64,000 nt of DNA from a virus. Position 1 is the first letter of the stretch. Every line of letters begins with the position of its first letter. This document shows positions 35,193-54,859 of the stretch, piece after piece. Below the pieces are notes generated by a model that ran no database searches, was not told where the DNA came from, and was given only the letters and a program-made list of their open reading frames with translations. Made by a program: the position numbers and the translations under genes. The DNA is taken from positions 23,463-87,462 of the IMG/VR virus record IMGVR_UViG_3300028563_000014. One strand, 5' to 3'.

Positions 35193-35195
35193 CGG

Positions 35196-37552: not shown

Positions 37553-37721
37553 CACCAGGTCCTGGTGTCGCTCTCGTCCTGCAGCTGCGCCCGCGCGCCG
37601 CCCTCCCGCCACGCCGCCTGCTCCCTGTCCGCGGCCAGGGCCCGCTCGCGCCCCTGGCGCAGCGCCCGGCTGACGTCGCGGTGCCACCGGTACCAGGCGA
37701 GCAGCCGGCGAAAGAGCGCGA

Positions 37722-38216: not shown

Positions 38217-38662
38217 CCCTCGCCCGCTGCCGGGTCCTCCGCCTCCGGCGGCGGCGCGCGCTCCGGGTCCACCACCACCGGAGGGATCCGCACACGCGCC
38301 CGGCCCTGCTTCCCGGCCCCCTCCGGCGGCTGGCGGATCTCGTAGACCGTCATCCGCGCCCCGGGCTGGACCACCAGGAACATCGCCTGGTGCGGGTAGA
38401 TCAGATCGCCCGCCTGCTGCGCGGCGCGCTCCACCTGCGTCAGCGACATCTTCGCGCGATCCTCCGAGGACAGGACGAAGACGAACGCACGCTGGTCCTG
38501 CCCCAGGTCGAAGGCGTAGGAGCGCAGCGGCGCGGCGATGTCGAGCCGGTCGGGCTCGAACGTCTCCAGCACCATCTGGCGCCGGTCCTTTTTCTTTGGC
38601 TTCGGGCGGTCCCCCGGCGGCGCGGGGACGGGCTTGGTCGCTTGGCTCATGCTGGTCATCAC
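38213..38662 (-). CDS. Hypothetical protein
   Basis: Translationally coupled to the TerL nuclease gene. Confidence 0.55.
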   Translation of the reverse strand: MMTSMSQATKPVPAPPGDRPKPKKKDRRQMVLETFEPDRLDIAAPLRSYAFDLGQDQRAFVFVLSSEDRAKMSLTQVERAAQQAGDLIYPHQAMFLVVQPGARMTVYEIRQPPEGAGKQGRARVRIPPVVVDPERAPPPEAEDPAAGEG

Positions 38663-39447
38663 CTCATGTTCAGGTCTCGCCGCCCGTCACCGGCGATGCG
38701 CCGGTTCCCCCACTGGTCGATCGCGGACTTGCAGAACCACGCCGCCATCACCCCGTCCGTGGTGCTGTACTTCGGATAGAGCGAGAACTGCCTGAAGAAC
38801 ACGCACCAGGAGCAATCGTGCCCCTCCGGGTGCCCCTCCCATTCGCCCGACGGGAAGGACCACGCCCGGTTCGAGAACTCCACCTCGAGCCCCGGCAGAC
38901 CGAACGCCGGGTCCGCCTTGTTCTTCCCGGTCGTGTGCGCCTCGACCTTCATCCAGAGAGACGGGTAGGCGGTCTTGCCCTTCTGGATCCAGTCGATCAG
39001 CGAGCCCTGGTACGCGTTGTTCTCGACCATCACGTATTGCACGTTGTGCCGGCCGCAGACGTCCGCCAGCATCATCGCCGTCTCCGGGCTCGACCAGGCG
39101 CCGTGCACCACCTCCGCCACGATCCGCCGCCGCGTGGTCGGCTCCACCACTACCACCACGATGAAGTTGCCCGGACGGGTGGCGGAGGACAGGTCGACCC
39201 CGACGTAGGCCGGCCACATGCGCCGGCGCACCTCGGAGACGATCAGGCCCGGCTCGCAGCAAAGCTTGAAGCTCGGGAACTTCAGGTCGCCGGGCTTGAT
39301 CACCTGCATCCGGAACCCCTGCAGCCACATGGCGTGGCCGCCCTCGTCGCCGCCGCGCGCCTTCTGCTCCAGGACGTCGCGCGGGAACTTGCTCTCCCAC
39401 AGCGGCAGGTCCGGGAGCTTCTGAACGCTGACGGCGCGAGGGCTCAC
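38659..39447 (-). CDS. Terminase large subunit, C-terminal RNase H-like nuclease domain (stand-alone gene)
   Basis: Linker 'PLWESKFPRDVLEQK', 'YVGVDLS' (first catalytic Asp), 'VMVENNAYQ', 'GKNK' and terminal 'TTDGVMAAW'. No ATPase domain. Confidence 0.8.
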   Translation of the reverse strand: MSPRAVSVQKLPDLPLWESKFPRDVLEQKARGGDEGGHAMWLQGFRMQVIKPGDLKFPSFKLCCEPGLIVSEVRRRMWPAYVGVDLSSATRPGNFIVVVVVEPTTRRRIVAEVVHGAWSSPETAMMLADVCGRHNVQYVMVENNAYQGSLIDWIQKGKTAYPSLWMKVEAHTTGKNKADPAFGLPGLEVEFSNRAWSFPSGEWEGHPEGHDCSWCVFFRQFSLYPKYSTTDGVMAAWFCKSAIDQWGNRRIAGDGRRDLNMR

Positions 39448-39608
39448 GTTCTAGCGCCCCACCTCGACCATGCCCTTGAAGCTGCAGCCGCCGTGGAAGT
39501 AGGCGCCCGCGTCCGCGTTCGGGAACTTCTCTCCAGGCTTGGTCTCCATCGGGCCTCCTTGTCGTTCTCGGATCTGCTCTTCTCCAGTCACTGCCAAAAT
39601 AGGCGGCT

Positions 39609-41075
39609 TCACCGGTCCACCGGCCCCGGCAACACCACCGGCCGCTCGACCACCGTGACCGCATCCGCGGCGAACGCGGCCTCTGCCGGCGCCGGGTCGA
39701 CCACCGAGAACGTTGGCACCACCACCGGCGGCGGGCAGGCCCGCAGGAACCGCTCGCCCGCCGCGCCCCAGTCCAGGTTCCGGAACCACGCCTCCACCGC
39801 CAGGTGCTGCCCGGCCCCGCCGTGGTCCGGGACGTACGCGTGCTCGTGGCAGCAGCAGGCGAAGACCACGGGCCAGCCGGCCGGCGCGCCGCCATCGTTC
39901 AGCGCCAGGTTGCGCAGGCGCCCCTCGCCAGGATCCCAGCACGTCAGCGCCCAGGCGTCGGCGCCCATCGCGAGCTGCCGCAGGTCCGCCTGCCAGTCGT
40001 CAACCGAGCCGTACGCGAGAGCCAGCGCAGCCTGCAGCGGCGCCGCGCTGGCTCCTCCGGCTGTCACTCCCGCTACCGCGCCGCCCGCTCCCGCCAGCCC
40101 CTGGAAGAAAATCTCATGCAGGACGGCATCTTGCGCGGCCTCCGTCTCCTCTCGCGCCACCTGCGCGCGCTCCGGCGGCGTCACCTTGGGTTTTCCCAGG
40201 TAATCGGCCACGGTTCCCGCCAGGCGGGTAAACGGCTCCTGGTAGCCGGGCAGGCTGGTGGCGGGGTCGCCGTAGAACAGGCCGAGGCCCGTGACCATTA
40301 GCGCCACCGTCTCCAGCTTGAAGGCGGCGCGCGAGTCCTCCTGGTAGCCCTCCGTGTCCCCGCCGAGCCAGGCGGCGAAGGTCTCGGCCCAGTCCTCGTC
40401 CGGGTGCTTCTGGGCGTAATGGGCCATCTGGCCCTGGCCCGGCCGGTCGAGGTTCCGGACGTAGTCGGCGGCGCGGGCGGGGTCCGGCTCATAGGCGTCG
40501 AGGTACGGGCGAGCGAAGTCCCCGAAGGCGGTGCGCCACTCCGGGTGGGTCCAGCGCTGGTAGGCGTAGAGCAGCGCGTGGCCCGTCTCGTGGCGCAGGA
40601 CCCGCATCTTCTCCTCGTCCGTCAGCGGGTCGCAGAGCGCCGCGGTGACCGGGGAGCCCAGGTACCAGGGCAGGTTCACCGAGCAGGCGCGGTCCGTCGT
40701 CCAGTAGTCGTTGGTCCCCAGGTAGAAGCCGGGGACCCAGGCGATGCCCTTCGCCTGTAGCTCCTCCTGGAGGCGGGTGAGCAGGCCGTTCGCCGGCTCC
40801 TGGAGCAGGGTCAGGTTCAGCAGGGAGACCGGCGTCTCCAGGGTCATCTGCACCTCCTCGGGCGGGAACGCGGCGGCGGCCGGCGGCAGCTTCCAGGCCA
40901 TCGCCTGGCGCCGCTGGCGCGCGCTGGCGAGGCGGGCCTGGGCCCGGGCGAGGACCGCCAGGTGCTGCCGCAGGGCCGCGTCGCTCGTGCCGGTGAGGGT
41001 TCCTACGAGCCTGGCTTCCAGTGACGTCGCATCCTGCATCCAGGCCAGCGTCTCGCGGAGCCGATCTCTTTGCAA
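39609..41075 (-). CDS. Fusion: HExxH zinc metallopeptidase-like domain plus Fe/Mn superoxide dismutase-like C-terminal domain
   Basis: 'LRHETGHA...YAQKHPDEDWAETFAAWL', then 'LHEIFFQGL...YGSVDDW...WALTCWD...CCHEHAY..DHG...VEAWFRNLDW'. Start codon uncertain. Confidence 0.7.
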   Translation of the reverse strand: MQRDRLRETLAWMQDATSLEARLVGTLTGTSDAALRQHLAVLARAQARLASARQRRQAMAWKLPPAAAAFPPEEVQMTLETPVSLLNLTLLQEPANGLLTRLQEELQAKGIAWVPGFYLGTNDYWTTDRACSVNLPWYLGSPVTAALCDPLTDEEKMRVLRHETGHALLYAYQRWTHPEWRTAFGDFARPYLDAYEPDPARAADYVRNLDRPGQGQMAHYAQKHPDEDWAETFAAWLGGDTEGYQEDSRAAFKLETVALMVTGLGLFYGDPATSLPGYQEPFTRLAGTVADYLGKPKVTPPERAQVAREETEAAQDAVLHEIFFQGLAGAGGAVAGVTAGGASAAPLQAALALAYGSVDDWQADLRQLAMGADAWALTCWDPGEGRLRNLALNDGGAPAGWPVVFACCCHEHAYVPDHGGAGQHLAVEAWFRNLDWGAAGERFLRACPPPVVVPTFSVVDPAPAEAAFAADAVTVVERPVVLPGPVDR

Positions 41076-41098
41076 GCGCGATTACGCGCCCGAGCTGG

Positions 41099-41881
41099 TC
41101 AGCCCGCGGGACGGAGCCGGATCTCGGACCAGCGGATCTTCGCGTCGTACCGCCCGTCAGGCTTCGTCTGCGGCGAGATGCACCAGGGCCACTTCCGCGA
41201 GAACGCGTCGACCATCGCCCGCTCCCGGCCGCTGGTCGCGTACACCGGCGCCAGCCCGCCGTCGTTCGACCCGTTCTTCGGGGCGGCGAACCCGACCTGG
41301 CAGGCGCGGACGGCGTCGTACCCGCTGGCGATAACCTGGACGGTGTAGTCCCGGTCCCCCTTCAGCTCGAGCGACGGGTCGTACGCCACCCCGTGGCTCT
41401 GCCCCAGACTGACCCGGTTCGCCACGACCACGTCACAGTAGCCGTTCCGCTTCGCCGGCTTCTTCGCAGCCCAGGAGAACTGCTGGTACTCCAGGGCGAC
41501 CTGGCCCACGTCCTCCGTGATGAGCGCCTGGGCCTCCAGCAGGGCCTCCCGAGCAGACGTCGGCGCGTTCTTGCCGTCGCGCGCTCGGAAGAACCCGGAG
41601 ACGTCGTCGTCGATCATCCACAGCCACTCCAGGCCCTGCGCGCGCCCCAGCGCCATGACGCTGCTCCGGCTGAACGGGAGTCCCCGCCCGTTCCCCGCCA
41701 GGACCACCAGCTTGTGGTCCGGCTGCGCCAGCCGGTACGCCTTCTCCTCGGCCGGCTCGACGACGACGTTCGCCTTGATTCCCTGCTCCGCCAGGAGCGG
41801 CAGCAGCTTGGAGATCTTGGCGCGCCCCTTGGACGGGACGAAGATCGGGAACAGGTCGGTCGCCGGCGTGGCCTTCTTCAT
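41099..41881 (-). CDS. TET/JBP-associated GT-A glycosyltransferase
   Basis: 'PIFVPSKGRA', 'WMIDDDV', 'GDRDY..Q' and 'GSNDGG' motifs; ATG overlaps the dioxygenase stop. Confidence 0.8.
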   Translation of the reverse strand: MKKATPATDLFPIFVPSKGRAKISKLLPLLAEQGIKANVVVEPAEEKAYRLAQPDHKLVVLAGNGRGLPFSRSSVMALGRAQGLEWLWMIDDDVSGFFRARDGKNAPTSAREALLEAQALITEDVGQVALEYQQFSWAAKKPAKRNGYCDVVVANRVSLGQSHGVAYDPSLELKGDRDYTVQVIASGYDAVRACQVGFAAPKNGSNDGGLAPVYATSGRERAMVDAFSRKWPWCISPQTKPDGRYDAKIRWSEIRLRPAG

Positions 41882-42699
41882 ACTTTCTTTTCCGCGGCCC
41901 GGTCGACCGCGCGCTTCGTCTTCACCCGCTGGATGCGCAGGAGCTCGTCCGCCATCGGCAGGCAGTTGCACATGGCCTTCATCGCGTAGAAGACCACCGA
42001 GTAGCGGTAGGACATGCTCGACCGCCGCACGATCGGCGTCACCCCGTGGGCCACGTCGGCACCGTCGAACATGATCAGCGCCGGCTTCTGGAACGAGAAC
42101 CCGAGGCCCAGCTCCGGCATGGCCAGGACCCCGCCTTCCGTATCGAAGCAGAGCGCGTACATCGCCGACCACAGGCCCTTGAAGTTGCCGGAGTCGCGGT
42201 GGTACCGGAGCGTATTGTTCCGGTTGGCGATCCCGGACGTGAACGCGGTCCCGGGGATCCGCCACTCCGGCAGCACCGCCGACACCGCCTGCTCCTGGTG
42301 CGCGTAGCGCCCAGGGTTCGTCGCCCGGTAGACCGCGTCCGCCTTCCGAGCGTACTCGCACAGCACCTCGTGCTGCGCCGGGTGCTGCGTGGCCATCGAC
42401 GCCTTGGTGCAGAAGTCGCGGCGGAGCGTCACCCGGGGCAGCGACCCGAACGTCCGGCTCTCCGTCACCAGCCCGTCCGTACGTGCCGTGTTCTGGAACT
42501 CGATCGCGTTGCAGGCGTTGCGCAGGCCCCACACGTCAGCCGGCTTCATCATCCGGAAGGCAACCACCAGCTCGCCCCCCACCAGGACGTCCTCGTCCTC
42601 CTCCACCAGGCGCTCGTAGTCACTCGCCTGCGCCCCCCGAAACTTCAACGCCTTCACGTCGACGGCGCGCCGCTGGACCTCAGTCCTTCTTCTTCTCAT
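41878..42699 (-). CDS. 2OG-Fe(II) dioxygenase, TET/JBP family
   Basis: 'FTSGIANRN..LRYHRDSGN' (HxD), 'HGVTP' (distal His), 'RYSVVFY' (2OG-binding Arg). Confidence 0.85.
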   Translation of the reverse strand: MRRRRTEVQRRAVDVKALKFRGAQASDYERLVEEDEDVLVGGELVVAFRMMKPADVWGLRNACNAIEFQNTARTDGLVTESRTFGSLPRVTLRRDFCTKASMATQHPAQHEVLCEYARKADAVYRATNPGRYAHQEQAVSAVLPEWRIPGTAFTSGIANRNNTLRYHRDSGNFKGLWSAMYALCFDTEGGVLAMPELGLGFSFQKPALIMFDGADVAHGVTPIVRRSSMSYRYSVVFYAMKAMCNCLPMADELLRIQRVKTKRAVDRAAEKKV

Positions 42700-43372
42700 A
42701 CGTCTCCAAGAGCAGCACCAGGGCGGCGGAGTGGTTGTCGACCTTGCCCAGCTGCATCACGCGGGCGAGCCGGGCCAAGATCTTCCCCATGGCCGCGTCC
42801 TTGAACGGGAAGACGATCTGCCGGATGACCCCCTCGCCGGCCACCCCGGGCGCCAGCGTCGTGTCCGAGCTGCCGCCCGAGGACGCCGCCCTCAGCCGTG
42901 CGAAGGCGTCCTCGTCCCACCCGACGCGCGCCAGGCCCGCCGGCCCCGAAGCCTCGTGCAGGCGCTGCAGCACTGGCGCCAGATCCGCCTGACTCCAGCC
43001 GCCGATCTCCACCCAGCGGTTATCGGCCAGCAGGTAGCCCTCTGCCTCCTGCTCGTTCTTGAACGCCACCCCGCGCAGGACAGGCGCCATCCACTCGCCT
43101 GTCTTCGGGTCGCGCCGGATGTACTTCGGTGGTCGTTCCGCGTCCTCGGCCACGAGGTGCTCCAGCGCCTCCAGCCGGCCGTGGCCCGCCACCAGGCGCC
43201 CGGTCCGCGCGTTCTCGATCAGCACCTCGGCGAACCCGTGCTCCCGGATCGAAGACGCGATCCCAGGGATGTCGTGCTTCTTCGGGTTGCGCTTCGCGCG
43301 CTTGATCTCGGAGAGCCGGACGTACTCGACCAGCGGCATGTCCTCGCCGGCCACCGCGACGGCGGCGGTCAC
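42680..43372 (-). CDS. ParB/Srx-like N-terminal domain protein (paralog 2)
   Basis: 'NPKKHD...IASSIREHGF...LVAGHGRLEAL...YLLADNR'. Start is GTG 43372 or ATG 43339. Confidence 0.8.
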   Translation of the reverse strand: MTAAVAVAGEDMPLVEYVRLSEIKRAKRNPKKHDIPGIASSIREHGFAEVLIENARTGRLVAGHGRLEALEHLVAEDAERPPKYIRRDPKTGEWMAPVLRGVAFKNEQEAEGYLLADNRWVEIGGWSQADLAPVLQRLHEASGPAGLARVGWDEDAFARLRAASSGGSSDTTLAPGVAGEGVIRQIVFPFKDAAMGKILARLARVMQLGKVDNHSAALVLLLETYEKKKD

Positions 43373-44139
43373 GCCGCACCTCGCAGAGGCTTCAGCTTCC
43401 GCACCTGCTCGAAGCGCGAGATCAGCCGCTCCAGCGCCTCTGAGTTGGAGCCCACCTTCTCTCGGCGCATCACGCGCGACAGGCGCCCCAGGATCGCCTC
43501 CGTCTCCGCCGCCGGGAAGTAGACCACGATCTGCTTCACCGCCCCGGCGTTGTACCCCTCGGCCAGACCAGCGGGCGTCTTCCCGCGCGCCGCCGTGCTG
43601 GCGTCGAAGTCGGACAGGTACCGGCCGATGGCCTTCTCGGACCAGCCGATCGCTGCCAGCTCTCCCTTGTCGGCGCGCTGGGACAGGCGCTCGAGCATCG
43701 GCACCAGCAGTTCCGGATCCCACCCGCCCTTCTCCACCCAGCGGTTGACCGCGATCAGGTACTCCTCCGCGGCCTGCTCACTGGGGAAGGTGATGCCCTT
43801 CAGCACCGGGATCATCCACTCGCCATCGGGGGCGAGCTTCACGAACCGCGGGACCTCCTTCGGGTCCTCCGTGTAGAGCTGGCGCGCCGCCGCCAGGCGC
43901 CCGTGGCCGGCGGCGATGCGGCCGGACTCGGCGTTCTCCACGAGGGGGGCGACGAAACCGTAGCGCCGGATGGAGGCCGCGATCCCCTCCTCGTCGTGCT
44001 CCTTCGGGTTGCGCAGCGCCGTCCGGATCTCCGACAGCCTGACGTGCTCGACCCAGGAGCCGTCGCCCGCCGAGGGACTAGTTAGTACCGGCTCGCCGGC
44101 GGGGCTACTCGGCTTCTTCTTAGTCGCGGTCTTTGCCAT
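43369..44139 (-). CDS. ParB/Srx-like N-terminal domain protein (paralog 1)
   Basis: 'NPKEHD...IAASIRRYGFVAP...IAAGHGRLAAA...YLIAVNR'; TGG-TACCGT -10 upstream. Confidence 0.8.
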   Translation of the reverse strand: MAKTATKKKPSSPAGEPVLTSPSAGDGSWVEHVRLSEIRTALRNPKEHDEEGIAASIRRYGFVAPLVENAESGRIAAGHGRLAAARQLYTEDPKEVPRFVKLAPDGEWMIPVLKGITFPSEQAAEEYLIAVNRWVEKGGWDPELLVPMLERLSQRADKGELAAIGWSEKAIGRYLSDFDASTAARGKTPAGLAEGYNAGAVKQIVVYFPAAETEAILGRLSRVMRREKVGSNSEALERLISRFEQVRKLKPLRGAA

Positions 44140-44165
44140 GAACGATTACGGTACCACCGAACCCA

Positions 44166-46901
44166 TCACGGCCCGAACGTCCCGAACAGATCCGCCGGGT
44201 GCGGGTTTCCCGCCCCCACCGCCCCGACGTCCGTATTGCGGGCCCCTACGTCGTCCGCCGGGTCGCCGCTGTCGATGACCGGGCTTCCAGCGGTCGGCGT
44301 GTACATCGCGCGATAGGCGGCGAGCACCTGGGCTACCGTCGTGCAACGGGACCAGATCGCTCCGTCGGCGTAGGCGAACGGGACCTGCCGCGCCTGGGCG
44401 AACTGCGGGTCTGTGCTGGCGCCGCCGCCGATGTCGTGGGCACCGAGGCCAGTGTCCGCGTAGGGCGTGAGCAGCGTGGTGTCGGGGTTCCAGAAGCCGT
44501 TGTAGTCGGCGCTGGCCACGGACCCGGGACCGAAGACAGCCACGGGGTTCCAGAAGTCGAAACCGACGAACAGGTTGTTCCTCGCGCTCGTCAACTGCCA
44601 ACCGTTCCCCGGCGCGAACGGCGAGTAGTGCCAGCCCAGCAGCGCGCCCCCGGCGTCGACCGTGTTGTTGTAGAACGACCCGGTCGACAGCGTGATGCCG
44701 CCGCTCGGGTAATACGGCGAAGCGAACCCAACGTTCGCCAGCACATTGTGGTGAACGGATGCGTTCTGCGCGCCGCGGAGGAACGCCTCGCTGAGGCCGT
44801 CGACCATCAGGTTGAAGCGCGCCTCGCCGGCCAAGTCCTGGATCATCCAAGATCCGCCGCGCAGCAGGTTGTGCTCCAGCAGCGACGGCGCCTGCGAGAA
44901 AGTGTTGACAAAATCGACCACGTGCCCCTGCGACCAACCGTAGGGGTAGCGGTGATAGACGACGTTCCCGCTGATGACGTCGCTGCTGCTGTCGTCGAAC
45001 TCCAAGCCGGCTCGGACGCCGATGAGGACGTTTCCTGCCGCGCTCGTCGATCCACCAACGAGCCAGCCGCTGGTGGCGTCGAACCGCACGAAGCTGACGC
45101 CCACGTTGTTGCCGCTGAAGGTCTTGGCTCCGGTCGAGTTGCCCGAGAGCGTGAGGCTCGGGTGGCTGCCGTCGTAGTCGGGCGTGGCGTTGACGGTCGT
45201 CAGGATGTTCGCCGCCAACGTGTTGCCGCTGAAGGTGATCGGAGCGGAACCCTCGGCGCCCAGCGCCAGCGGGCCGGTGCGGTCGAACACCGATCCGCTG
45301 ACCTCCAGCGGGGCGGTGCCGACGACGTCCACGGCGATGCTGGACACGTCCATCGAACCGAGCCCGATCACGTCGACATTGCGCAGGATGAGGTGCCCCG
45401 TCCACCCCGTGGCGCTCCGAATGCGCGAGCCGTTGCTGCTCGTGAGTAGCGCCCGTGCACCTGGCGATCCGATGAACTCGAAGTCGGTCGACCCGGACAA
45501 AACGAGGTCGCTGGCCAGATCCATGTTGGGGCCCGCGTGCGGGCCGACATCAACGACCGTGATCGGCACGTACTGGCTCTCGACGGTGCCGCTGGCCATC
45601 CGGCTGCGCGCGTAGACGTCGTACGTTCCCGCGGCCACGCCCGTCACGTCCACCTGGTAGTAGTCGTAGGGGCTGCTCGTGGTCGCGTGCACGCTGCTGA
45701 CCAGCGTCGACCCAAGGTAGATGTCCACGTCGGGCGAGTAGTTGTTCACGCCATCGCTTCCGTAGTCGGGGGCGTGCGCCCAAATCCTGATGGTCGCCGG
45801 GGCGAAATAGGTCATGCCGGCCACGGGGGTCATCACTCTGACGTAGGGGACGGCCGCGGTGAAGTACGGCTCGACCGGCCACGATGTGCAGGCCACGCCG
45901 CCCGTTCCAGCTGATCCACCGACGCCTCCCGCGCCGCCAGTACCAGCAGATCCGCCAGCGCCAGCCGATCCGCCCGTTCCCATCGAACCGCCGGTCGACC
46001 CGCAGGTGACCACTCCTCCGGTGCCCACGCCAGCGACGCCCGCGGTCCCGCCGCCTACAGACCCACCCGCCGAGCCGCCCGCCGCACCGCCGACTGACCC
46101 ACCGGCTCCTACGACGGAGCCGCCCGCGCTTCCTCCGACGCTCCCAGCCGCGCCACCGGCACCGCCGCCACCGGCGACGAGCGGCGTGCTCGCGTCCGTC
46201 TGCAGCTCGGCCAACGCTAACGCCCGCTTGTAGATGCGCAGGTCGTCGACCCGCCCGTGGAAGAAATCGCCGAACACGGCGTTGCCTCCGATCGTCAGCG
46301 CGTCGTTGGTCTGGACGATCGAGATCGCCGATGCCTTGCTGCCCACCTGCGATACCGTGCCCGCGGTCGCCTCGAAGAGCCTGAGGGTGGCGTGGTCGTA
46401 GGTCATCGCGACGTAGGTCCACTGGCCCGCGGCGGGCATGGTGCCGGCCGCCAGGTCGACGTCGGAGGCGGACGCGATCCGGGCGAGCGGCTGGGTCGAG
46501 TTCCACCCGTAGAGGCCATAGGCCAGCGCGCTCGGGCGCCCCTTGGAGACCACGTCCTGCCACGATCCGCCGGTGCCGTCCGGGGCGATCCAAGCTGAGA
46601 TCGTCAGGCCCGTCGAGAGGTCCAGCGGGCTGCCGGTCCCGGGATCTGCCACGGTGATCAGGCCGGCGCCGTCGAAGGCCAGCGCGCCGCCGTACTTGCC
46701 AGTGGCCCACGTCTGGTGCGCGGTGACGACGCCGTCGAGGTGGTTCGTGGTCACATCGTGGAGGGCCGAGCCGGCCCCCTCGTCGAAGTTGTAGCCGGCG
46801 ACCAACGCGGCATCGAGCGCGCTACGAGCAGACTGAAGAGTGTCGCCCGACCTGCACGACGCGATCACGAGGCACCCCAAGAGGACGACGATACGTTTCA
46901 T
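44166..46901 (-). CDS. Large lipoprotein: LamG domain, Gly-rich linker, Ig-like domain, beta-helix
   Basis: ATGA-coupled start MKRIVVLLGCLVIASC (lipobox). 'YNFDEGAG...FHGRVDDLRIYKRAL' LamG. GTGGSAGAGG linker. C-terminal 'GSPVIDSGDP...DVGAV'. Confidence 0.8.
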   Translation of the reverse strand: MKRIVVLLGCLVIASCRSGDTLQSARSALDAALVAGYNFDEGAGSALHDVTTNHLDGVVTAHQTWATGKYGGALAFDGAGLITVADPGTGSPLDLSTGLTISAWIAPDGTGGSWQDVVSKGRPSALAYGLYGWNSTQPLARIASASDVDLAAGTMPAAGQWTYVAMTYDHATLRLFEATAGTVSQVGSKASAISIVQTNDALTIGGNAVFGDFFHGRVDDLRIYKRALALAELQTDASTPLVAGGGGAGGAAGSVGGSAGGSVVGAGGSVGGAAGGSAGGSVGGGTAGVAGVGTGGVVTCGSTGGSMGTGGSAGAGGSAGTGGAGGVGGSAGTGGVACTSWPVEPYFTAAVPYVRVMTPVAGMTYFAPATIRIWAHAPDYGSDGVNNYSPDVDIYLGSTLVSSVHATTSSPYDYYQVDVTGVAAGTYDVYARSRMASGTVESQYVPITVVDVGPHAGPNMDLASDLVLSGSTDFEFIGSPGARALLTSSNGSRIRSATGWTGHLILRNVDVIGLGSMDVSSIAVDVVGTAPLEVSGSVFDRTGPLALGAEGSAPITFSGNTLAANILTTVNATPDYDGSHPSLTLSGNSTGAKTFSGNNVGVSFVRFDATSGWLVGGSTSAAGNVLIGVRAGLEFDDSSSDVISGNVVYHRYPYGWSQGHVVDFVNTFSQAPSLLEHNLLRGGSWMIQDLAGEARFNLMVDGLSEAFLRGAQNASVHHNVLANVGFASPYYPSGGITLSTGSFYNNTVDAGGALLGWHYSPFAPGNGWQLTSARNNLFVGFDFWNPVAVFGPGSVASADYNGFWNPDTTLLTPYADTGLGAHDIGGGASTDPQFAQARQVPFAYADGAIWSRCTTVAQVLAAYRAMYTPTAGSPVIDSGDPADDVGARNTDVGAVGAGNPHPADLFGTFGP

Positions 46902-47437: not shown

Positions 47438-47961
47438 GGTGTTCCTTTCTCTTCTGGCATCCTTCGCGTCGACCCGAACGGGACCGTCGCGTTGAAGACC
47501 CGTGGCTCCATCGCCGCGTACCGCTCTCGGTCACTGGCATATGCCCTGTCGACCAGTCGCTGGTCGGCCTCCGAGATCATGCGTCCCTGCTTCGTCTGGC
47601 AACGCAGATAGAACACCAGCCCCCACTCTCGCTCGGTCAACGCCGATGGCTCCTCCGGAGCGACGTCGATCGGGATTTCGACCTCCTTGCATCTACGGAC
47701 GTTGTGGGTCGTGCTGCCGCAGCGGGAGCAGGTTCTTCTGGTCGTCCTGGTCATCGCTCGTCGGTTCAAGAGACCGGTGTCCATGATGCCGTGGATATCC
47801 GTCACCACCCGTACTCGCTTGATGCCACGCGAGATGTGCTCAGCGTCGAGAGCTCCCGACATCCCCAGCACCGCCTTCTGCACGTACTCGGCAAGAACGA
47901 CATGTTCATCTTCCGACAGTCGGTCGACCCAGATCTCCACGGCGCAAATGAACTTGCTCAA
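47434..47961 (-). CDS. Hypothetical protein with zinc knuckle (CSRCGSTTHNVRRC)
   Basis: CCHC motif; coupled start and stop. Confidence 0.55.
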   Translation of the reverse strand: MSKFICAVEIWVDRLSEDEHVVLAEYVQKAVLGMSGALDAEHISRGIKRVRVVTDIHGIMDTGLLNRRAMTRTTRRTCSRCGSTTHNVRRCKEVEIPIDVAPEEPSALTEREWGLVFYLRCQTKQGRMISEADQRLVDRAYASDRERYAAMEPRVFNATVPFGSTRRMPEEKGTP

Positions 47962-48485
47962 AATGGCACGTCGTCGTTGTCATCGATTCCGCCAGACCGA
48001 GCGTCAGTGCCGACGTTCGGCTTCTCCTCCTCGTCGCGCGCCGCCGCGCCAGACCCGCGCCAGCCCTTCATCTTCGCGAGCCATGGGAATACGTGGAGCT
48101 CGCCGCGGTCGCCGTCCCCCTGGACCGGGCTGTCCTTGTGGATCCCCTTCGTCGGGCACCACTCCTCGGACCCGCTGGGCAGCCGGATCTTCAGGGCCTT
48201 CGCGCTCTCCTTCAGGCACACCACGTCGGCCAGGACGACTACGTCCGGCGGTGCATCGTCCTCCTCGGCCCACTGGTCGACGATCCACTGGCTGACCTCT
48301 AGGTCGAACGGCACGCCCTCGTCCGGGAACTCGAAGTCCGCCGGCACCTGGGAGCGCGGGACGAACCGCTCCGTCCCGTCAGCAAAGCGGCAGAGCATCG
48401 ACCGCTCCTGCTTCTCCGGCGGGCGCCGGTCGATCACCTGCACGTTCTCGAACTCGACCGTAGGGTCTCCGTCTTTCAGCGGCAT
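47958..48485 (-). CDS. Tandem-domain protein with SSB-like acidic tail (DDNDDVPF)
   Basis: Two similar ~60-aa beta domains; C-terminus mimics the SSB-Ct motif DDDIPF. Confidence 0.55.
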   Translation of the reverse strand: MPLKDGDPTVEFENVQVIDRRPPEKQERSMLCRFADGTERFVPRSQVPADFEFPDEGVPFDLEVSQWIVDQWAEEDDAPPDVVVLADVVCLKESAKALKIRLPSGSEEWCPTKGIHKDSPVQGDGDRGELHVFPWLAKMKGWRGSGAAARDEEEKPNVGTDARSGGIDDNDDVPF

Positions 48486-48522
48486 CGCGTTTTTCCCTTC
48501 ACGAGGATCATTGTCCGACGAG

Positions 48523-48789
48523 TCACCGGCTGCCCACTATCTGCCCGACCCACGCGCTGCGGCCGCCCGTCTTGCACCCGGGGCACGGGTGCTCGACCAC
48601 GAACAGACTGCGCAGGTCGTTCGTCCTCCTAGGCGGGTCGACCGCACCGCAGAACGCGACCCGCGCCTCGCCCGCCCGGTGCGCCGGCAGGATGCGCGGT
48701 ACCCAGTGCATCGGCTCCGGCGGCGGGGCCGGCGGCGCCTGGCGCGGCTTTCCGCGGAACAGGCGCGCCAGGAAGGACGGGAGCTTCAC
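48523..48789 (-). CDS. Small Cys-containing protein (MKLPSFLARLFR...)
   Basis: GTG overlaps the upstream stop. Confidence 0.5.
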   Translation of the reverse strand: MKLPSFLARLFRGKPRQAPPAPPPEPMHWVPRILPAHRAGEARVAFCGAVDPPRRTNDLRSLFVVEHPCPGCKTGGRSAWVGQIVGSR

Positions 48790-49070
48790 TGATCCGCCCT
48801 CCCCTCTTCCGCCGCGCGGCACGTCCTGCAGTGCAGGCGGCAATACTCCTTATGCCCGGGCGCGGTCCCTGCGGACAACGGGCACCCGGCCTCGGAGCAC
48901 GCTCCGCCCTCCCGGCCTTCTAATATCCTGGATCCGCACGTGCACGGCGGTAACGACGTGATGTCTCGCCGGCCGCACCTGCGGCAGAGCCAGTAATCGT
49001 GGTCTGCGTTGATTCCGTCGCCCGTCATACGACGCCGGAAGAAGCGCGCCAGGAAGCCTGGGAGCTTCAC
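48786..49070 (-). CDS. Small Cys-rich protein (MKLPGFLARFFR...)
   Basis: GTG overlaps the methylase stop. Confidence 0.5.
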   Translation of the reverse strand: MKLPGFLARFFRRRMTGDGINADHDYWLCRRCGRRDITSLPPCTCGSRILEGREGGACSEAGCPLSAGTAPGHKEYCRLHCRTCRAAEEGRADQ

Positions 49071-49549
49071 TCGGGCCTCTTCCAGTCCAGCCAGCGCCAG
49101 GGCTCGAGGCCCGAATACCCCTCGGGCGTGAACAGGGACAGCATCAGGTCCTTCGGGTACGGGTCCTTCTCGCCCGCGAACGTCAGGCGCGGCGCGATCC
49201 CGAAGACGTACGCCTTGCCGTGCACGTGCTCCCGGTACCAGGCGGAGCCGATGCTGGCCGGGGTGAGCATCGCGATCTTGGCGCCGCGCGCGCTCTCCTC
49301 CGCGCATTTCTTCGCCCAAGGGGCGATGTCGGCGAACGGAGGGTTCAGCCAGAGCAGCCTCCCGCCTCTCCAGTGCAGCGCCCACGGATACGAGAGCGCA
49401 TCGTCCTTCTCGGTGTAATAGCTGGCGTGGACGGCGTTCTCGTGGCTCGCGGCGAGGTCATGGACGATCTCTCCGAACCGCCGTTGCACCGCGTCCAGGA
49501 ACGGCCTCGGCGTCCCGTAGTCTTGTCGACTTTGCCCCCGCTTGCTCAT
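49067..49549 (-). CDS. Phage DNA N6-adenine methyltransferase (Dam-like family)
   Basis: 'DYGTPRPF...DLAASHENA...YYT..DDAL...WLNPPF...WAKK' with catalytic NPPF. Confidence 0.85.
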   Translation of the reverse strand: MSKRGQSRQDYGTPRPFLDAVQRRFGEIVHDLAASHENAVHASYYTEKDDALSYPWALHWRGGRLLWLNPPFADIAPWAKKCAEESARGAKIAMLTPASIGSAWYREHVHGKAYVFGIAPRLTFAGEKDPYPKDLMLSLFTPEGYSGLEPWRWLDWKRPE

Positions 49550-50181
49550 GCGTCTACCTCCAGCGAGGCTAGGATCCGGTCGCGCGCCACGTTCAGTTCC
49601 TTCAGCTTTTCCTCCGCCGCCTTCTTCGCGGCGTCGCAACTCGCCTGGTCCGGGTGCCCGTAGAACATCACCAGCGCCCGGTGCGCCGCCTTCACCAACG
49701 CGGCCGGCGCGGACGGGAGCAGGTGCAGCGCGCGCCAGTCCTCCGGCTGGACGGCGTTCCCGCGGCGCGGAGGAGGCGGGGGCGCCTGACGTTTTTGGCG
49801 CACGTAGCTGTCGGCGAAGTCGGCGAATCCGTGGAAGCGAGGACCAGGAGGCGGATCGTTGAACGGGCCGCGACTTGCCCCCCCGAACGGGTCCTCGTCG
49901 TCGACGCCGGACTTCTTCTGCTCGGCGACCACCCGCTTGCCGAGAAGCGGGTCGCGCATCAGCTCCCACCCGTGCAGCTCCGCCCCCTCACCCAGCAACG
50001 TGTGAAACGCCTCCCAGACAGAATCTCTTACGAACCAGACGCAGAGGCCCGGCCACCACATACGGCTCTTCGCCGGCACCGCCTTGAACATCGCGACTAG
50101 CCGCTGGTCGAACCGGAAGGCGTAGGCCGTCCACTTCTCCCCGTCATTCAGCTTCACCCGCGACCACCGGATCGTCATCAC
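49546..50181 (-). CDS. J-domain protein (C-terminal, HPD motif) with HARP-like N-terminus
   Basis: 'WRALHL.PSA....VKAAHRAL...HPD...EEKLKELNVA'; N-terminal 'FRFDQRLVAMFKAVP...W.....W'. Confidence 0.75.
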   Translation of the reverse strand: MMTIRWSRVKLNDGEKWTAYAFRFDQRLVAMFKAVPAKSRMWWPGLCVWFVRDSVWEAFHTLLGEGAELHGWELMRDPLLGKRVVAEQKKSGVDDEDPFGGASRGPFNDPPPGPRFHGFADFADSYVRQKRQAPPPPPRRGNAVQPEDWRALHLLPSAPAALVKAAHRALVMFYGHPDQASCDAAKKAAEEKLKELNVARDRILASLEVDA

Positions 50182-50834
50182 GGCCTAGTGACCTCCGCCC
50201 GCGGCGTGATTCCCCATCGCGCGCGCCGGAAGTCGTCCTCCTGTTTCGCCAGCTCGGCATCGGACGCCAACTCGAGCGGCGGCCCCTCTGCAGGCTGCCA
50301 GTCGCCGCGCTCGTAGCGCAGGAAGAACGTCGCCGCCTGGAACGCGTCGCGCGCCAAGACGACCTGGCGGAACGTCTTCACGTCGTAGATCTTCCAGGCC
50401 GCATCAGCCGAGGGCGGCGCCGCCACGACGCAGACGCGGAGCCCCAGCACCGCGCCGACCCGCATGAGCGTCCGGCAGACCAGCTCGACGAACTCGAACC
50501 CGGTGCCCGCCTGGTCCCACCGCGGGTGCAGGTGGTGCCCGCGCCGGTCGACCACGTTCAAGTGCGGCCGGCTCCACGAGTCGTACCAGCGCCCGTCATC
50601 GATGGCCAGCAGGAACCCGTCCTCGAACCCACTCCGCCGCTGCGGATTCCAGGCAGCGTCAGCCAGGACGAACCGAGCTGCGCGCCGGGCGATCCCGCGC
50701 AGCGTCCGACACCGCTCGGCGCCCCAGCGCGCGAGCGCCGCGGGCGCGTCCTCCAAGTACTCGCGTCCCTCCTCCGCGCCCAGCTCCTTCCCGTTCTCGC
50801 GGTCGAAGCGCGGGTCGATGCGGCCCCGGCTCAC
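50178..50834 (-). CDS. Hypothetical protein
   Basis: Coupled start and stop. Confidence 0.5.
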   Translation of the reverse strand: MSRGRIDPRFDRENGKELGAEEGREYLEDAPAALARWGAERCRTLRGIARRAARFVLADAAWNPQRRSGFEDGFLLAIDDGRWYDSWSRPHLNVVDRRGHHLHPRWDQAGTGFEFVELVCRTLMRVGAVLGLRVCVVAAPPSADAAWKIYDVKTFRQVVLARDAFQAATFFLRYERGDWQPAEGPPLELASDAELAKQEDDFRRARWGITPRAEVTRP

Positions 50835-51076
50835 GGGGAGACCTCGCCCTCGGTTTCAACCCGGTTCCGGCTGCGGAGCCCGTCCTCTAGCACGCCCAGG
50901 ACGCGCACCTGCTCCTTGTGCCCGGCGCCGTACGCGGCCAGCTGGCCCAGCAGCCACTCCTTGCAGCCGGCCGGCCAGCCGCCGGCACCGAACTTGAACT
51001 CCTTGTGTCCGCCGACGGTCAGGTTCCAGCTCGTCTTCCCGCCCGGGGACTTCTCGACGATGACCGGAATCTTCAC
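50831..51076 (-). CDS. Hypothetical protein
   Basis: Coupled start and stop. Confidence 0.5.
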   Translation of the reverse strand: MKIPVIVEKSPGGKTSWNLTVGGHKEFKFGAGGWPAGCKEWLLGQLAAYGAGHKEQVRVLGVLEDGLRSRNRVETEGEVSP

Positions 51077-51399
51077 CGGTCCACCGCCACGCGCACGGCC
51101 AAGTGAAACAGGCCCGGGTGGGCGAAGTCGCCCGCGTCGCAGTCGCTGGCGGGCTTCCCGGTCACGTCGAGACGCGCGTCCACCAGCTTGCCGATCACGA
51201 AGCCCGGACCGTCGTTGGCGTCCTCCGGGCGGTTCACCCGAACGTGGACCCAGTATTGCCCGTCCGTCGTCCGGACCACGTCCACGTCGCCCCCGGGGAA
51301 CGCCACCCGGAAGCTCTCCGGCTCCGGGTTGCGCTTGTCGCCGCAGAGCCGCACGCCCTGGACCTTCGAGCCGAAGTCCTGGACCACCAGACGCTTCAC
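51073..51399 (-). CDS. Hypothetical protein
   Basis: GTG start at VKRLVVQ; coupled to the downstream gene. Confidence 0.5.
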   Translation of the reverse strand: MKRLVVQDFGSKVQGVRLCGDKRNPEPESFRVAFPGGDVDVVRTTDGQYWVHVRVNRPEDANDGPGFVIGKLVDARLDVTGKPASDCDAGDFAHPGLFHLAVRVAVDR

Positions 51400-51893
51400 G
51401 AGAACACCGCCACCAGGAGCCCGAGAGCGCGAGCCCCCAGATCGCCGAGCTCCTCCACCAAGCCGAGCGCGAGCACCGCGCCGGCTACGATCGCCAGTTT
51501 TTTCATGTCCCTTCCTACCTTTCGAGAGCGTGTCCACCGCTCCAGCCGAACCCGGGGCACCGCCTTGATGGAATCCCCGGGGCCGGCTGCAACGCTAGGA
51601 TCCTTGCCAGCTCCTACGGGGCGTTACCCCCTTGGGCGCCTTGCGGCTCCCGCTGTGGACCGCCCGGGGGGGAAAGGACAGACCTCTCGCCGGACGTGCA
51701 AGACCGAAACTCAGGGATGCCGGCGCGCCGGTCGGCCGCCGCCTGCGCCGCCTCTAAGTCCTCCAGGACGGCGTGGACCCATGACGGGAGCGGCTCGCCG
51801 TCCATTACCCCACCTCCGTTTCTGCCAGCAATCGCTTGAGGCGGGCGGCGACGTCCAGTCCCTCCGGCCAGGCGCGGACAGCGCAGGGGGCCA

Positions 51894-52181
51894 TTACGCC
51901 ACCGCCTCCGCGTCAACTGAATAGTCCTGGTAGGCGCCGGCGCAAAAGGCGTCCCAGAGCTCGACCTGGACCTGCTGAACAATCGAGTCTCGGTCGTCGG
52001 ACTCCGTCGCCGCGTCCCACTCGTACAACCACGCGCCGGTGCGTGGCCCCTCGGATACCTCGATCTCTGCGCCAGGGAATTGTTTCGCCAGCTCAGTCGC
52101 GACGAATTCCGGATAGTGCTCGGCCTCGGGAAACGCGACGTCTCCGTCGTAGGCGGTGGTCTCAACGCTGATCTTCTTCAT
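51894..52181 (-). CDS. Acidic hypothetical protein
   Basis: GAGAGG RBS; downstream of an AT-rich promoter. Confidence 0.55.
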   Translation of the reverse strand: MKKISVETTAYDGDVAFPEAEHYPEFVATELAKQFPGAEIEVSEGPRTGAWLYEWDAATESDDRDSIVQQVQVELWDAFCAGAYQDYSVDAEAVA

Positions 52182-52224
52182 GGTCCTCTCTACCTTTCCG
52201 GGGTCCGGGTCCAACCGGCCCAAC

Positions 52225-52268
52225 GGATCTATATCTACCGTAATTAAAACCTAAACGCAAACAAAATC
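52225..52268 (-). promoter_or_regulatory. AT-rich sigma70-like promoter region
   Basis: TTTTGTTTGCGTTTAGGTTTTAATTACGGTAGATATAGAT, the most AT-rich patch seen in the window. Confidence 0.55.
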
Positions 52269-52276
52269 GTCAGGGC

Positions 52277-52307
52277 GCCGGGGGGAGCCGTTTGTAGCTC
52301 CCCCGGC
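52277..52307 (-). terminator. GC-rich hairpin, probable terminator
   Basis: GCCGGGGGAGC-loop-GCTCCCCCCGGC downstream of ORF 52328-52771, followed by a T-rich stretch. Confidence 0.55.
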
Positions 52308-52327
52308 TGACCCGCCCAGGCCGCGCC

Positions 52328-52771
52328 CTACTCCTTCACCTTCTTCGGGCGCCCGCGCTTTTTCGGGGCCGGCTCCTCGTCCTCGCCGCCGCCATCGCCC
52401 GAGGCGCCGTCGAACATCTCGTCCTGCGTCTCCTCGATCGACATCGTCCGCTCGGTGCCCGGAACCATCTCGCCCGTGTCCGCGCGCTCGATGTGCACCT
52501 TCTTCCGACGGAAGTCCTTCACCGTCACGCAGTCGACCTTGCGCTCCTCCGTCTCCGCGTCCAGCTCATCGAGCAGGACGTCGAGCTCGGCCACCACCAG
52601 GGACAGCTTCTCTTTGTGGCCGCGCGTGGCCTCCTTCATGTCGGCCTTGATCTTCTCGCGGTCCTTTTTTAGCTTCCCCGCTTTCTTGGACTTCTTGCGG
52701 ATCTCCGCTTCGGTGAGCGGGACCGGACAGGGGTGCTTGAAGGGCTTGGACATGGTGATGTCGTCGGGCAT
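52328..52771 (-). CDS. Hypothetical coiled-coil phage protein
   Basis: Charged helical protein; GAGGAG RBS. Confidence 0.6.
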   Translation of the reverse strand: MPDDITMSKPFKHPCPVPLTEAEIRKKSKKAGKLKKDREKIKADMKEATRGHKEKLSLVVAELDVLLDELDAETEERKVDCVTVKDFRRKKVHIERADTGEMVPGTERTMSIEETQDEMFDGASGDGGGEDEEPAPKKRGRPKKVKE

Positions 52772-52878
52772 GGGACCGTCTCCTCTCGTTCTGGGTTCTC
52801 TAGCCAGCGGATGATCTCCCCGACCTCGCCGGCGCGCAATTGCAATTCAGGACAGCGCTCTGTGTAAAACGGAGCGGC

Positions 52879-53262
52879 TCACGACCGTGTCCGGCGGTGC
52901 TCTTCCTCGACCGCACGCTGGACGTTGTCCGCCACGCGCTGGACCCAGAACTCGCCTACCGCCTTCCCCGCCTGGAACAGCCGGCCCCGGACGTCCTCCT
53001 CCGGGTGGCCCTCGCAGATCGCCGCCAGCGCCCCCTGCACCATCACCGCGATCACCGCGTTGACGTCCATGGTGTTCTTGCCGACCTTGAAGTGCCCCTC
53101 GACCTCCTTGGTCAGCGACGACGCCTGCTCGAGCACGGAGGAGACGACGCCGAGCATGACGTCCTCCCGGTCCAGTTCCGGCACCAGCTCTTTCACCCGG
53201 GCGCCCAGGGCCATCGCCCGAGCCGCCTGCCGCTCGTTCACTTCCTTCGAATCTTCTTCCAT
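52879..53262 (-). CDS. Hypothetical helical protein
   Basis: Directly after the TerL ATPase gene; no nuclease motifs. Confidence 0.55.
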   Translation of the reverse strand: MEEDSKEVNERQAARAMALGARVKELVPELDREDVMLGVVSSVLEQASSLTKEVEGHFKVGKNTMDVNAVIAVMVQGALAAICEGHPEEDVRGRLFQAGKAVGEFWVQRVADNVQRAVEEEHRRTRS

Positions 53263-53269
53263 GCCCAGA

Positions 53270-54097
53270 TCATTGTCCGTCCACCAGCATGTCAGCCATC
53301 ATCGCCGCGACCTCGCCCCGGTAGTCGCTGCCGGCGTTGTAGACCTCCTGCTCGTAGCCGGTCAGGTCCTCCTTCACTCGCTGCTCCAGCCAGACGAAGT
53401 CCCCCCGGGAGCGCATGGTGTAGCTGGCGTCGTCCAGGTCCCACGGGGTGGCGATCCAGAGCACCTTCCCCCGGGGCTCGAGACGGCTCATCCAGAGCGT
53501 CTCTACCTGGTGCTTGACCCGCTTCCGTTTCTCGTAGGTGGTGCAGTTCTCGATGTCGACGACGTCGTCGAACAAGATCGTCGTCGCGCGGCCGCCCGTC
53601 CCCTTCGAGTAGACGCCACGGGACTCCAGCGTCGGGTCGATGCCGTGGCCAACGCGCTCGGCGTAGAGCATGTGGTCGTTCCACTTCTCGCCGCGCTCGA
53701 CCCCCGGGAAGACAGCGCCGTAGGCCGGGCTCTCGATGATCTTCCGGCAGGACTGGAGCCGCTGGCTGGCGTGGCCGTCGCCGCTGCAGACGATCTTCAC
53801 CCGTTCCTGCGGATCCCGACCGACCAAGTACGTGATCAGTGGCACGCCGAAGCCCGACGATTTTCCAGACCCGAAATGGCTGAAGATCCCGGCGTGGAGC
53901 CCGCGCGACCAGGCGTAGCTCACGTGGGCGATCCAGGCCAGGTGCAGGTGGCTGTACTCGATCGGCTTGCCCTCGGCCGCGTCCCGGACGACCGTCGGCC
54001 CGAACCGGTGGAACCGCTCGCGCGCCGCCTTCAGCACGAGCTGCCGCCGGGCCTCGATCATCCGACCCCAGTCGGGGCCGACCGCCGGGGCGCTCAC
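53270..54097 (-). CDS. Terminase large subunit, N-terminal ATPase domain (stand-alone gene)
   Basis: Walker A 'SHFGSGKS', 'GTGGRA', Walker B 'TILFDDVVD', 'SRLEP', coupling motif 'IATPWDLDD'. Stops at 275 aa. Confidence 0.85.
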   Translation of the reverse strand: MSAPAVGPDWGRMIEARRQLVLKAARERFHRFGPTVVRDAAEGKPIEYSHLHLAWIAHVSYAWSRGLHAGIFSHFGSGKSSGFGVPLITYLVGRDPQERVKIVCSGDGHASQRLQSCRKIIESPAYGAVFPGVERGEKWNDHMLYAERVGHGIDPTLESRGVYSKGTGGRATTILFDDVVDIENCTTYEKRKRVKHQVETLWMSRLEPRGKVLWIATPWDLDDASYTMRSRGDFVWLEQRVKEDLTGYEQEVYNAGSDYRGEVAAMMADMLVDGQ

Positions 54098-54162
54098 GAG
54101 CTTGGTATCCTGCTTCGCATCCGACCGACGATCGTAACCGACCAGACGCCCAGGAGGATCAC

Positions 54163-54627: not shown

Positions 54628-54859
54628 ATCCAGCCCTCTAGCAGCGCCTCGACCACGCCCAGGGCGAGGCGAAAGCGGCAGGTATCGCAGGGCGGGTCCC
54701 CGAATCCGATCGCGCGCTGAAGGTTGCAGCTGCATTCCCTCCCAGCGTCCTGACGCTTCAGCTCCTCCAAGGCGATGTTCACGGCTCGCTGGCGGTTCTC
54801 AGCAGCGACGAATCGCCTCTGGGCGCGGATCATCCGACGGGTCGCCGGAAACGTCGCTC

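Follow-up and report, generated by a model that had tools for sequence, protein, structure and literature searches.

We analysed a window of 64,000 nucleotides (nt) that comprises bases 23463-87462 of the 87,462-bp IMG/VR virus record IMGVR_UViG_3300028563_000014. In this 87.5-kb phage genome the large subunit of the terminase (TerL) is encoded by two distant genes, and it most probably consists of two separately translated, non-covalent chains which are cut at the linker between the domains and are not rejoined. One gene encodes a stand-alone ATPase chain, here called TerL-N, and the other a stand-alone RNase H-like nuclease chain, TerL-C. An earlier annotation of the same DNA, in the following called the sequence-only reading, had proposed such a split terminase in two open reading frames (ORFs) on the minus strand. 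Both ORFs were recovered at the positions given in Table 1, and all motifs quoted for them are present in the translations.

The ATPase half carries a Walker A motif (SHFGSGKS, with the core FGSGKS and lysine K79), a Walker B motif (ILFDD, extended ILFDDVVD, with D177/D178) and the coupling motif ATPW. The roles of these residues we take to be those established for TerL proteins. The Walker A, Walker B and coupling motifs are kept in 10/10 copies taken from phage genomes. The start codon of TerL-N is uncertain and could be the GTG at 54097 or an ATG located 11 codons downstream. Profile searches placed TerL-N on positions 266-469 of the 760 positions of PHROG 38 (E 4e-24) and on PHROG 4758 (E 5e-14); the match to NCBIfam NF033889, the T7-type TerL, had an E-value of 7e-13 and 48 bits at a cut-off of 150 bits. 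A sequence profile of TerL-N matches T7 gp19 (4bij) and the TerL of PhiV-1 (8dgc) with E about 1e-8. The AlphaFold model of TerL-N has a predicted local distance difference test score (pLDDT) of 90.5, and a Foldseek search of the PDB with this model revealed chain 8dgc_E (PhiV-1 TerL) as top match (E 2.7e-9, template modelling score 0.62). Further matches were T4 gp17 (2o0j), P74-26 (4znk), D6E (5oeb), T7, HK97 and Sf6, and terminases made up 23 of the 25 best matches listed. The predicted fold of TerL-N is like that of the solved TerL ATPase domains.

TerL-C contains an acidic triad consisting of D85 (in GVD), E142 (VENN, within ENNAYQ) and D231 (the late Asp of TTDG). These three residues are invariant in 10/10 stand-alone copies from phage genomes, and 18 fused relatives show no variation in the corresponding columns; by analogy we infer that the triad is catalytic and metal-binding. 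At the N-terminus an LPxLPxW motif in the PLWESKFP region is a remnant of the interdomain linker, and L11 and P15 of this segment occur in at least 90% of the copies. TerL-C matches PHROG 38 at positions 486-698 (E 2e-11). Its model (pLDDT 71.7, with residues 1-50 modelled at a low confidence of 46-64) shows the order beta-beta-beta-alpha-beta-alpha-beta, and this predicted order of secondary structure elements fits an RNase H-like fold. A search at E <= 1e-10 yielded 60 stand-alone nuclease-only proteins matching TerL-C (P0151-P0210) with lengths of 146-371 amino acids (aa), mostly about 250-260, and several of them are encoded on contigs of 83-96 kb. In public sources these nuclease-only proteins are without a Pfam domain, and every name given to them is 'hypothetical protein'.

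With the ATPase half as query, an exhaustive search gave 1,734 proteins (E <= 0.001), of which the best 150 were taken. TerL-C matches 50 of these 150 relatives in their C-terminal halves, and one-chain relatives align end to end with both halves. A fused-TerL profile of 513 positions, made from 18 one-chain relatives, covers TerL-N with positions 19-261 (E 1e-76) and TerL-C with positions 266-502 (E 8e-79). The two proteins are therefore complementary, do not overlap and lack nothing, and the cut is located exactly at the interdomain linker; the claim of complementary, non-overlapping and intact halves was in this way borne out. The suspicion that one half might belong to a different family also found no basis, as neither matches a non-terminase family in Pfam, PHROG or NCBIfam better. 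A second terminase in the genome was considered and rejected. Six-frame searches of the whole genome with PHROG 38 and the fused-TerL profile gave no TerL match beyond the two halves, and no full-length TerL is present elsewhere in the apparently complete genome; six-frame Pfam searches gave no match to Terminase_6N, TerL_ATPase, Terminase_3 or GpA_ATPase (PF03237, PF03354, PF04466 and PF05876). TerL is not found as a single polypeptide here: the two ORFs, both with a start and stop codon of their own, lie 13,822 nt apart, and the genome contains no fused copy. What was found is a two-gene layout with separate ORFs, a cut in the linker, conservation of both parts and no other TerL in the genome.

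A pattern scan of IMG/VR yielded 65 related loci; 50 records were searched with the fused-TerL profile, and 15 contigs of at most 11.4 kb were left out. Seven of the 50 records contain far-apart separate frames with gaps between 5.5 and 17 kb (G001 15.7 kb, G002 16.9, G005 15.8, G006 15.1, G008 14.1, G021 13.0 and G007 5.5), which demonstrates that related phages with the same split exist, as the sequence-only reading had suggested looking for. The ATPase of G021 contains an insert of intein size. Adjacent separate frames occur in five records (G044, G009, G010, G030 and G031), and both domains, or a long frame, lie in one ORF in 36/50. One record (G004) has the reversed order with the nuclease about 1 kb upstream of the ATPase. 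Another one (G003) has the ATPase only; it is a 92%-complete contig, and the usual spacing puts the partner beyond the contig end. The relatives form a natural series from fused over adjacent and swapped to up to 17 kb apart. In G004 (82 kb; L084 7999-10348; record 68002-70524) the nuclease gene is followed by a TerS-like gene and the ATPase gene, and the first 33 residues of the nuclease match fall in a stretch containing one TAG, for which a frameshift, another start codon or an error of sequencing are possible reasons.

The split genomes span 47-71% G+C, and each sufficiently complete one that was examined contains exactly one copy per half. The identities of ATPase and nuclease to the proteins of the window are, per genome, 59/67, 57/63, 42/48, 40/42, 43/48, 42/42, 36/38 and 32/39%. 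Both identities track each other, which fits co-inheritance of the halves. Synteny of the block between the halves is partly kept in G001 and G002, the closest two genomes, where 8-9 genes are shared in conserved order; in more distant split genomes the content of the block differs. An ATPase-domain tree was calculated with FastTree (LG+gamma, midpoint root) from 144 of 160 sequences after 16 partial domains had been dropped. The window belongs to a clade of 22 sequences with a support of 0.998, and all members are ATPase-only. Judged from these sequences, the fission appears to be old and inherited, and within the clade of the window it seems to predate the divergence of phages with 52-71% GC, the range of the 22-member clade copies.

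The ATPase-only relatives also include proteins with inteins. P0002 and P0011 are above the Pfam cut-off for Intein_splicing and P0005 is below it, and P0002 contains in addition a LAGLIDADG domain. The inserts have a size of 130-440 aa and are located at or near the P-loop (P0002, P0011, P0005 and G021 (L082) 34362-36314). Inteins mark the ATPase-only genes as targets of mobile elements and may also mark them as essential.

In the mechanism that we propose, TerL-N, the ASCE ATPase, would form a ring on the portal and pump the DNA. TerL-C would join this motor non-covalently and make the cuts at initiation and termination, and the conserved N-terminal LPxLPxW...RGFRM segment of TerL-C, which lies in the low-confidence part of the model, would be the likely contact with the motor. 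The halves would not be rejoined at the level of DNA, RNA or protein. After the fission the gap would have gathered other genes, in this case DNA-modification and accessory genes; the ATPase gene would head its own gene run behind the divergent M15 peptidase gene, and the nuclease gene would have stayed beside the portal. We infer the physical assembly of the two chains and their division of labour. An action of the chains in trans is indicated only indirectly, by the conservation of both halves and their catalytic residues and by a cultured phage with two annotated terminase genes. Separately regulated cleavage, which the sequence-only reading had brought up, is speculation.

Several observations weigh against a two-chain motor. 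The identity of TerL-C as terminase nuclease is argued from PHROG 38, the fused relatives, the motifs and the predicted secondary structure, and other searches gave less. Pfam showed Terminase_6C (E 0.03) and T7 RNaseH-like (E 0.069), both below the cut-off, the match to NF033889 (E 0.14) was far below 150 bits, and a PDB sequence search with TerL-C had zero matches. The comparison with Terminase_6N and Terminase_6C proposed by the sequence-only reading was in this way of limited use: it yielded the sub-threshold Terminase_6C match on the nuclease half, and for TerL-N Pfam showed no family at E <= 1. In addition, six of the nearest ATPase cluster representatives of the window (P0001, P0007, P0008, P0009, P0012 and P0023) are without the Walker A GK[ST] and have a degraded Walker B motif. 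Hence not every ATPase-only protein of this clade is an active motor. In the tree beyond the clade of the window, ATPase-only and fused forms interleave, with 26 parsimony changes on 137 labelled tips, and part of this interleaving may go back to frameshifts or to artefacts of gene calling in metagenomic proteins instead of fissions. The sequencing run whose contigs tile the region is probably the source sample and hence does not provide independent evidence. Finally, the cultured phage KellEzio, which is compared below, shows that the layout is viable, not that the pair of the window works; the similarity is remote.

The Walker A lysine and the Walker B acids are no longer present in the proteins of the P0001 group, yet these proteins are full length and keep many other conserved residues. 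They may be inactive paralogues, adaptors or decoys. For their genomic context, two viral-contig scans and a metagenome scan gave only contigs of at most 2.8 kb (e.g. L090:583-1491).

A more far-reaching idea, which we regard as rather doubtful, is that the fission was adaptive rather than neutral. On a chain of its own, the nuclease could be given a dose and timing independent of the motor, so that cuts would be made only at initiation and at headful termination. The split would also remove the single-chain, two-domain surface that is clasped by immune sensors of the Avs3 type. On this view the proteins of the P0001 group could have arisen from the free ATPase chain as decoys or adaptors, and counter-defence and DNA-modification cargo (here Tet/JBP, ParB-like and GT genes) would insert preferentially into the gap. 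In the available text of PMC13601566, SeAvs3 makes extensive contact with the native nuclease domain and recognises residues of the terminase active site together with the bound ATP ligand; EcAvs2 needs the ATPase domain only.

A functional divergence of the two halves is unlikely. TerL-N alone would then constitute the motor, like a phi29-type ATPase without a cutter of its own, and the nuclease would be a free, undocked enzyme with a role in, for example, concatemer resolution, host DNA degradation or recombination. The location of the genes in different neighbourhoods 13.8 kb apart, with the ATPase gene apparently heading its own run, is in line with this. Gene order is moreover free in the relatives (reversed in G004, gaps of 0-17 kb), so tight co-expression of the halves is not required, and the loss of the ATPase motifs in some close relatives indicates that the halves can evolve independently. 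However, the portal gene lies 1.7 kb downstream of the nuclease half, with four small ORFs between them, and the nuclease gene is therefore located at the usual position of TerL at the head of the morphogenesis block; it is the ATPase half that is displaced. A conserved linker remnant on TerL-C is hard to explain in a free enzyme, both halves are present in single copy with matched divergence in the sufficiently complete split genomes examined, and the genome contains no other terminase nuclease for the packaging cuts.

That the genome encodes a different packaging ATPase or terminase which was not recognised, and that the two TerL-like genes are remnants or serve other purposes, is improbable. 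Many genes of the 87-kb genome are without a family match and a minority of the ORFs was scanned, but the six-frame searches with PHROG 38, the family profile and the four Pfam families covered the whole genome and gave both halves only.

We attach very little probability to a rejoining of the halves into a one-chain TerL by excision or inversion of the block, RNA trans-splicing or protein trans-splicing. Such events are not without parallel: in the available text of the respective reports, group I intron splicing restores a split terL in Jug jumbo phages (PMC12880540) and the terminase of Twort is composed of three coding sequences (PMC13729910), and inteins are common in the family. In the phage studied here each half has its own start and stop, as in the relatives, and about 19 protein-coding genes lie in the gap. 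At the break, the ATPase chain has about 14 extra residues behind its domain and the nuclease chain about 12 in front of its domain match, so there is no room for split-intein halves. Rfam identified no family at the gathering score in the 64-kb window, and direct or inverted repeats flanking the inter-half block were not found. No contig joining both halves was detected in four rhizosphere runs; the only joints in the Logan contigs have sides of 20-24 nt, which are flagged as typical of other organisms or repeats. Rejoining by intron, intein or excision was rejected on these grounds, and the absence of intein and intron features noted from the sequence-only reading is confirmed.

In the Logan data of the probable source run, overlapping contigs tile positions 38000-55000 at an even depth of 33-42; the runs X2-X4, in which parts are without cover, provided low-depth fragments only. 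The Logan unitigs of the same source run branch at 39482-39755, where a 274-nt unitig of depth 26 stands beside an alternative of depth 12, and run X2 shows a cluster of substitutions at 39663-39723. Branch and substitutions point to microdiversity of the population immediately upstream of the nuclease gene. A misassembled contig or a recently broken terminase in a defective element is hardly credible in spite of the metagenomic assembly, the ends classed as 'linear' in IMG/VR and the unitig branch beside the nuclease gene, because the far split recurs in seven other independently assembled genomes and on several 83-96-kb contigs, the contigs of the source run tile evenly, the structural module of the genome is complete and the catalytic residues are invariant at identities of 32-67%. 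Misassembly was accordingly rejected, with the caveat of the source sample, and no assembly break of the kind feared in the sequence-only reading lies between the halves; a pseudogene was rejected by the conservation of the motifs.

The genes around the two halves are compiled in Table 1. Read in the direction of the minus strand, the order is candidate small terminase (TerS), small genes and the plus-strand M15 gene, ATPase, about 19 genes, the 32-codon ORF, nuclease, four ORFs, portal, gpF-like gene, major capsid and tail sheath. The estimate of about 20 unrelated genes between the halves was fair. The row of GT-like, Tet_JBP and ParB-like genes at 41099-44139 looks like a DNA-hypermodification cassette, and the remainder of the inter-half block consists of small genes without assigned function. 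In G006 the Tet_JBP and ParB homologues are located on the opposite side of the nuclease gene. The Peptidase_Mx/SOD-C gene is a conserved neighbour of the nuclease half: homologues lie upstream of the nuclease half in G001, G002, G005, G006 and G004, directly adjoining it in G006 and at a distance of 0.9-4 kb in the other four. The 32-codon ORF may drive the translation of the nuclease gene by coupling, as its position and ribosome-binding site suggest.

Table 1. Positions of the terminase genes and of neighbouring features in the window
Feature	Position	Strand	Remarks
Tail sheath	22105-23793		downstream of portal
Major capsid	28016-29398		downstream of portal
Mu gpF-like gene	33031-33951		downstream of portal
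Portal	35196..36953	minus	PHROG portal families 145, 64, 533
Small ORFs between nuclease half and portal	38213-38662, 37722-38216, 37552-37725, 37106-37555		
TerL-C, stand-alone large-terminase RNase H-like nuclease chain	38659..39447	minus	262 aa, GTG start
Inter-half block	39448..53269	minus	13,822 nt (13.8 kb), about 19 genes, mostly minus strand
32-codon ORF	39450..39548	minus	strong AAGGAGG ribosome-binding site; stops 3 nt before nuclease GTG
Peptidase_Mx/SOD-C fusion	39609-41075	minus	488 aa; Peptidase_Mx-like zinc peptidase with C-terminal domain of Fe/Mn superoxide dismutase
GT-like gene	41099-41881	minus	in inter-half block
Tet_JBP 2OG-Fe(II) dioxygenase	41878-42699	minus	in inter-half block
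Two ParB-like genes	42680-44139	minus	in inter-half block
LamG/ConA-like protein	44166-47213		1015 aa; in inter-half block
TerL-N, stand-alone large-terminase ATPase chain	53270..54097	minus	275 aa, GTG start
Peptidase_M15 (endolysin-like) gene	54163-54627	plus	one of few plus-strand genes
Candidate TerS	57941..58723	minus	260 aa; 3.8 kb upstream of ATPase gene

The M15 gene diverges from the ATPase half across a 65-nt spacer and separates it, together with small genes, from the candidate TerS. Assignment of the latter as TerS is plausible but unproven. Searches with this protein in Pfam, PHROG and NCBIfam had zero matches; in G006, G004 and G003 a homologue with 21-26% identity is encoded immediately upstream of the ATPase half, and its language-model neighbours, which serve as a lead only, are helix-turn-helix DNA-binding proteins of phages or bacteria.

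A recurring motif, TTGAC-N20-A-N3-T, was found nine times compared to 1.44 expected matches, and eight of these are on the minus strand between 5177 and 32925 in the region of the structural genes. None of these eight is at 33-64 kb or near either terminase half. It probably represents a class of late promoters that covers neither half. A scan of 37-56 kb for the sigma-70 consensus also gave no site, and a promoter shared by both halves was rejected on the basis of the two results.

CheckV assigned a completeness of 100% to the virus record. Its first 144 nt are identical to the last 144 nt save one mismatch (1-144 and 87319-87462, the latter corresponding to 63857-64000 of the window); such a terminal repeat is expected for a circular or circularly permuted map, and the record classed as 'linear' probably is a complete circular or circularly permuted map. 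The G+C content is 69%, and the minus strand holds nearly all genes. The phage is uncultured, has a tail-sheath gene and originates from rhizosphere (soil) metagenomes. None of the 19 sequencing runs listed for it is from RNA, which speaks neither for nor against expression. Two host scans of species-representative genomes were performed. The first had no relatives and the second found three fused-form relatives in metagenome-assembled genomes labelled Candidatus Xenobia, Conexibacter and Methanomicrobia, which is too weak a basis for naming a host. In tblastn searches of the GenBank phages neither half had a match at E <= 1e-5 and 1e-3. When the limit was raised to E <= 1, 124 records matched the ATPase half; the 40 of these that were listed have at most 29% identity over about half of the query and include T7-like cyanophages, Caulobacter jumbo phages and Microbacterium phages. 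The lineage is therefore without a cultured close relative in the GenBank phage collection.

Models of the terminase motor (T4 gp17 and P74-26, with phi29 for comparison) assume that ATPase and nuclease are tethered in one chain, and it is debated in the field what restrains the cleavage while DNA is being translocated and what triggers it at the end. A lineage that has long kept the two activities on separate proteins offers a ready-made system for studying the need for the tether, the recruitment of the nuclease and the stoichiometry. Pipelines for classification or completeness that are based on marker genes would score such genomes as terminase-less or truncated, because the nuclease is a 'hypothetical protein' and the ATPase has no Pfam match.

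In the available text of a review, a C-terminal nuclease domain is described as universal in TerL (PMC7824862). T7 gp19 (4BIJ), PhiV-1 TerL (8DGC), T4 gp17, P74-26 and D6E share with the window the ATPase fold and motifs and the order of the nuclease motifs; in contrast to these one-chain proteins, the domains are here located on separate polypeptides with genes 13.8 kb apart, and the cut-off of NF033889 is not reached. According to the available text of Evans et al. 2026 (PMC13601566), a free-standing homologue of the terminase ATPase domain with Walker A and B, similar in this to TerL-N, is vs.8 of T4. T4 has in addition the full gp17, so that vs.8 is an extra paralogue, whereas the ATPase of the window is the sole terminase ATPase of its genome.

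Genes for TerL in pieces are also present in the Jug jumbo phages and Twort and in the intein-bearing P0002 and P0011. In the parts of the reports at hand, the pieces of such genes are put together again by splicing of the RNA or the protein, and the breaks lie inside domains. In the window, the two pieces are divided at the domain boundary, both have a start and a stop of their own, and searches for splicing elements gave none. Apart from a remark on the Arthrobacter phages of cluster AT, the text retrieved in full-text literature searches described only intron-interrupted genes as split terL.

This remark concerns the closest parallel. The sequence-only reading had implied that the layout is unique, as TerL is normally one polypeptide, and this is not supported. 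In the available text of Klyczek et al. 2017 (PMC5513430) two terminase genes are mentioned for cluster AT phages, and in GenBank KU647626 (KellEzio) two genes at a distance of 1.8 kb bear the labels 'terminase large subunit, ATPase domain' (gene 4) and 'terminase large subunit, nuclease domain' (gene 10). A two-gene terminase is not unprecedented, and the novelty of our finding is limited. The text retrieved in full-text searches contained no functional study of the KellEzio pair or of any naturally two-gene TerL; the 2017 remark on cluster AT was the sole mention. As KellEzio is cultured and forms plaques, a two-gene TerL is compatible with viability. In BLASTP comparisons of the KellEzio proteins with the halves of the window the identity was 24% in an alignment of 102 aa (E 8e-4) and 35% in one of 68 aa (E 2e-7), and no Arthrobacter phage is among the 40 listed tblastn matches of the ATPase half; the KellEzio pair probably represents an independent fission in another TerL lineage. 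In both phages the ATPase (about 260 aa) and the nuclease have an ORF each, on one strand and with unrelated genes between them, and the nuclease is nearer to the portal. KellEzio is a cultured siphovirus with a gap of 1.8 kb and 5 genes, whereas the uncultured phage of the window has a tail-sheath gene and the far longer inter-half block of Table 1. The layout in the window is thus the most extreme form of an arrangement that is already annotated in a few cultured phages but unstudied, in a distinct uncultured lineage.

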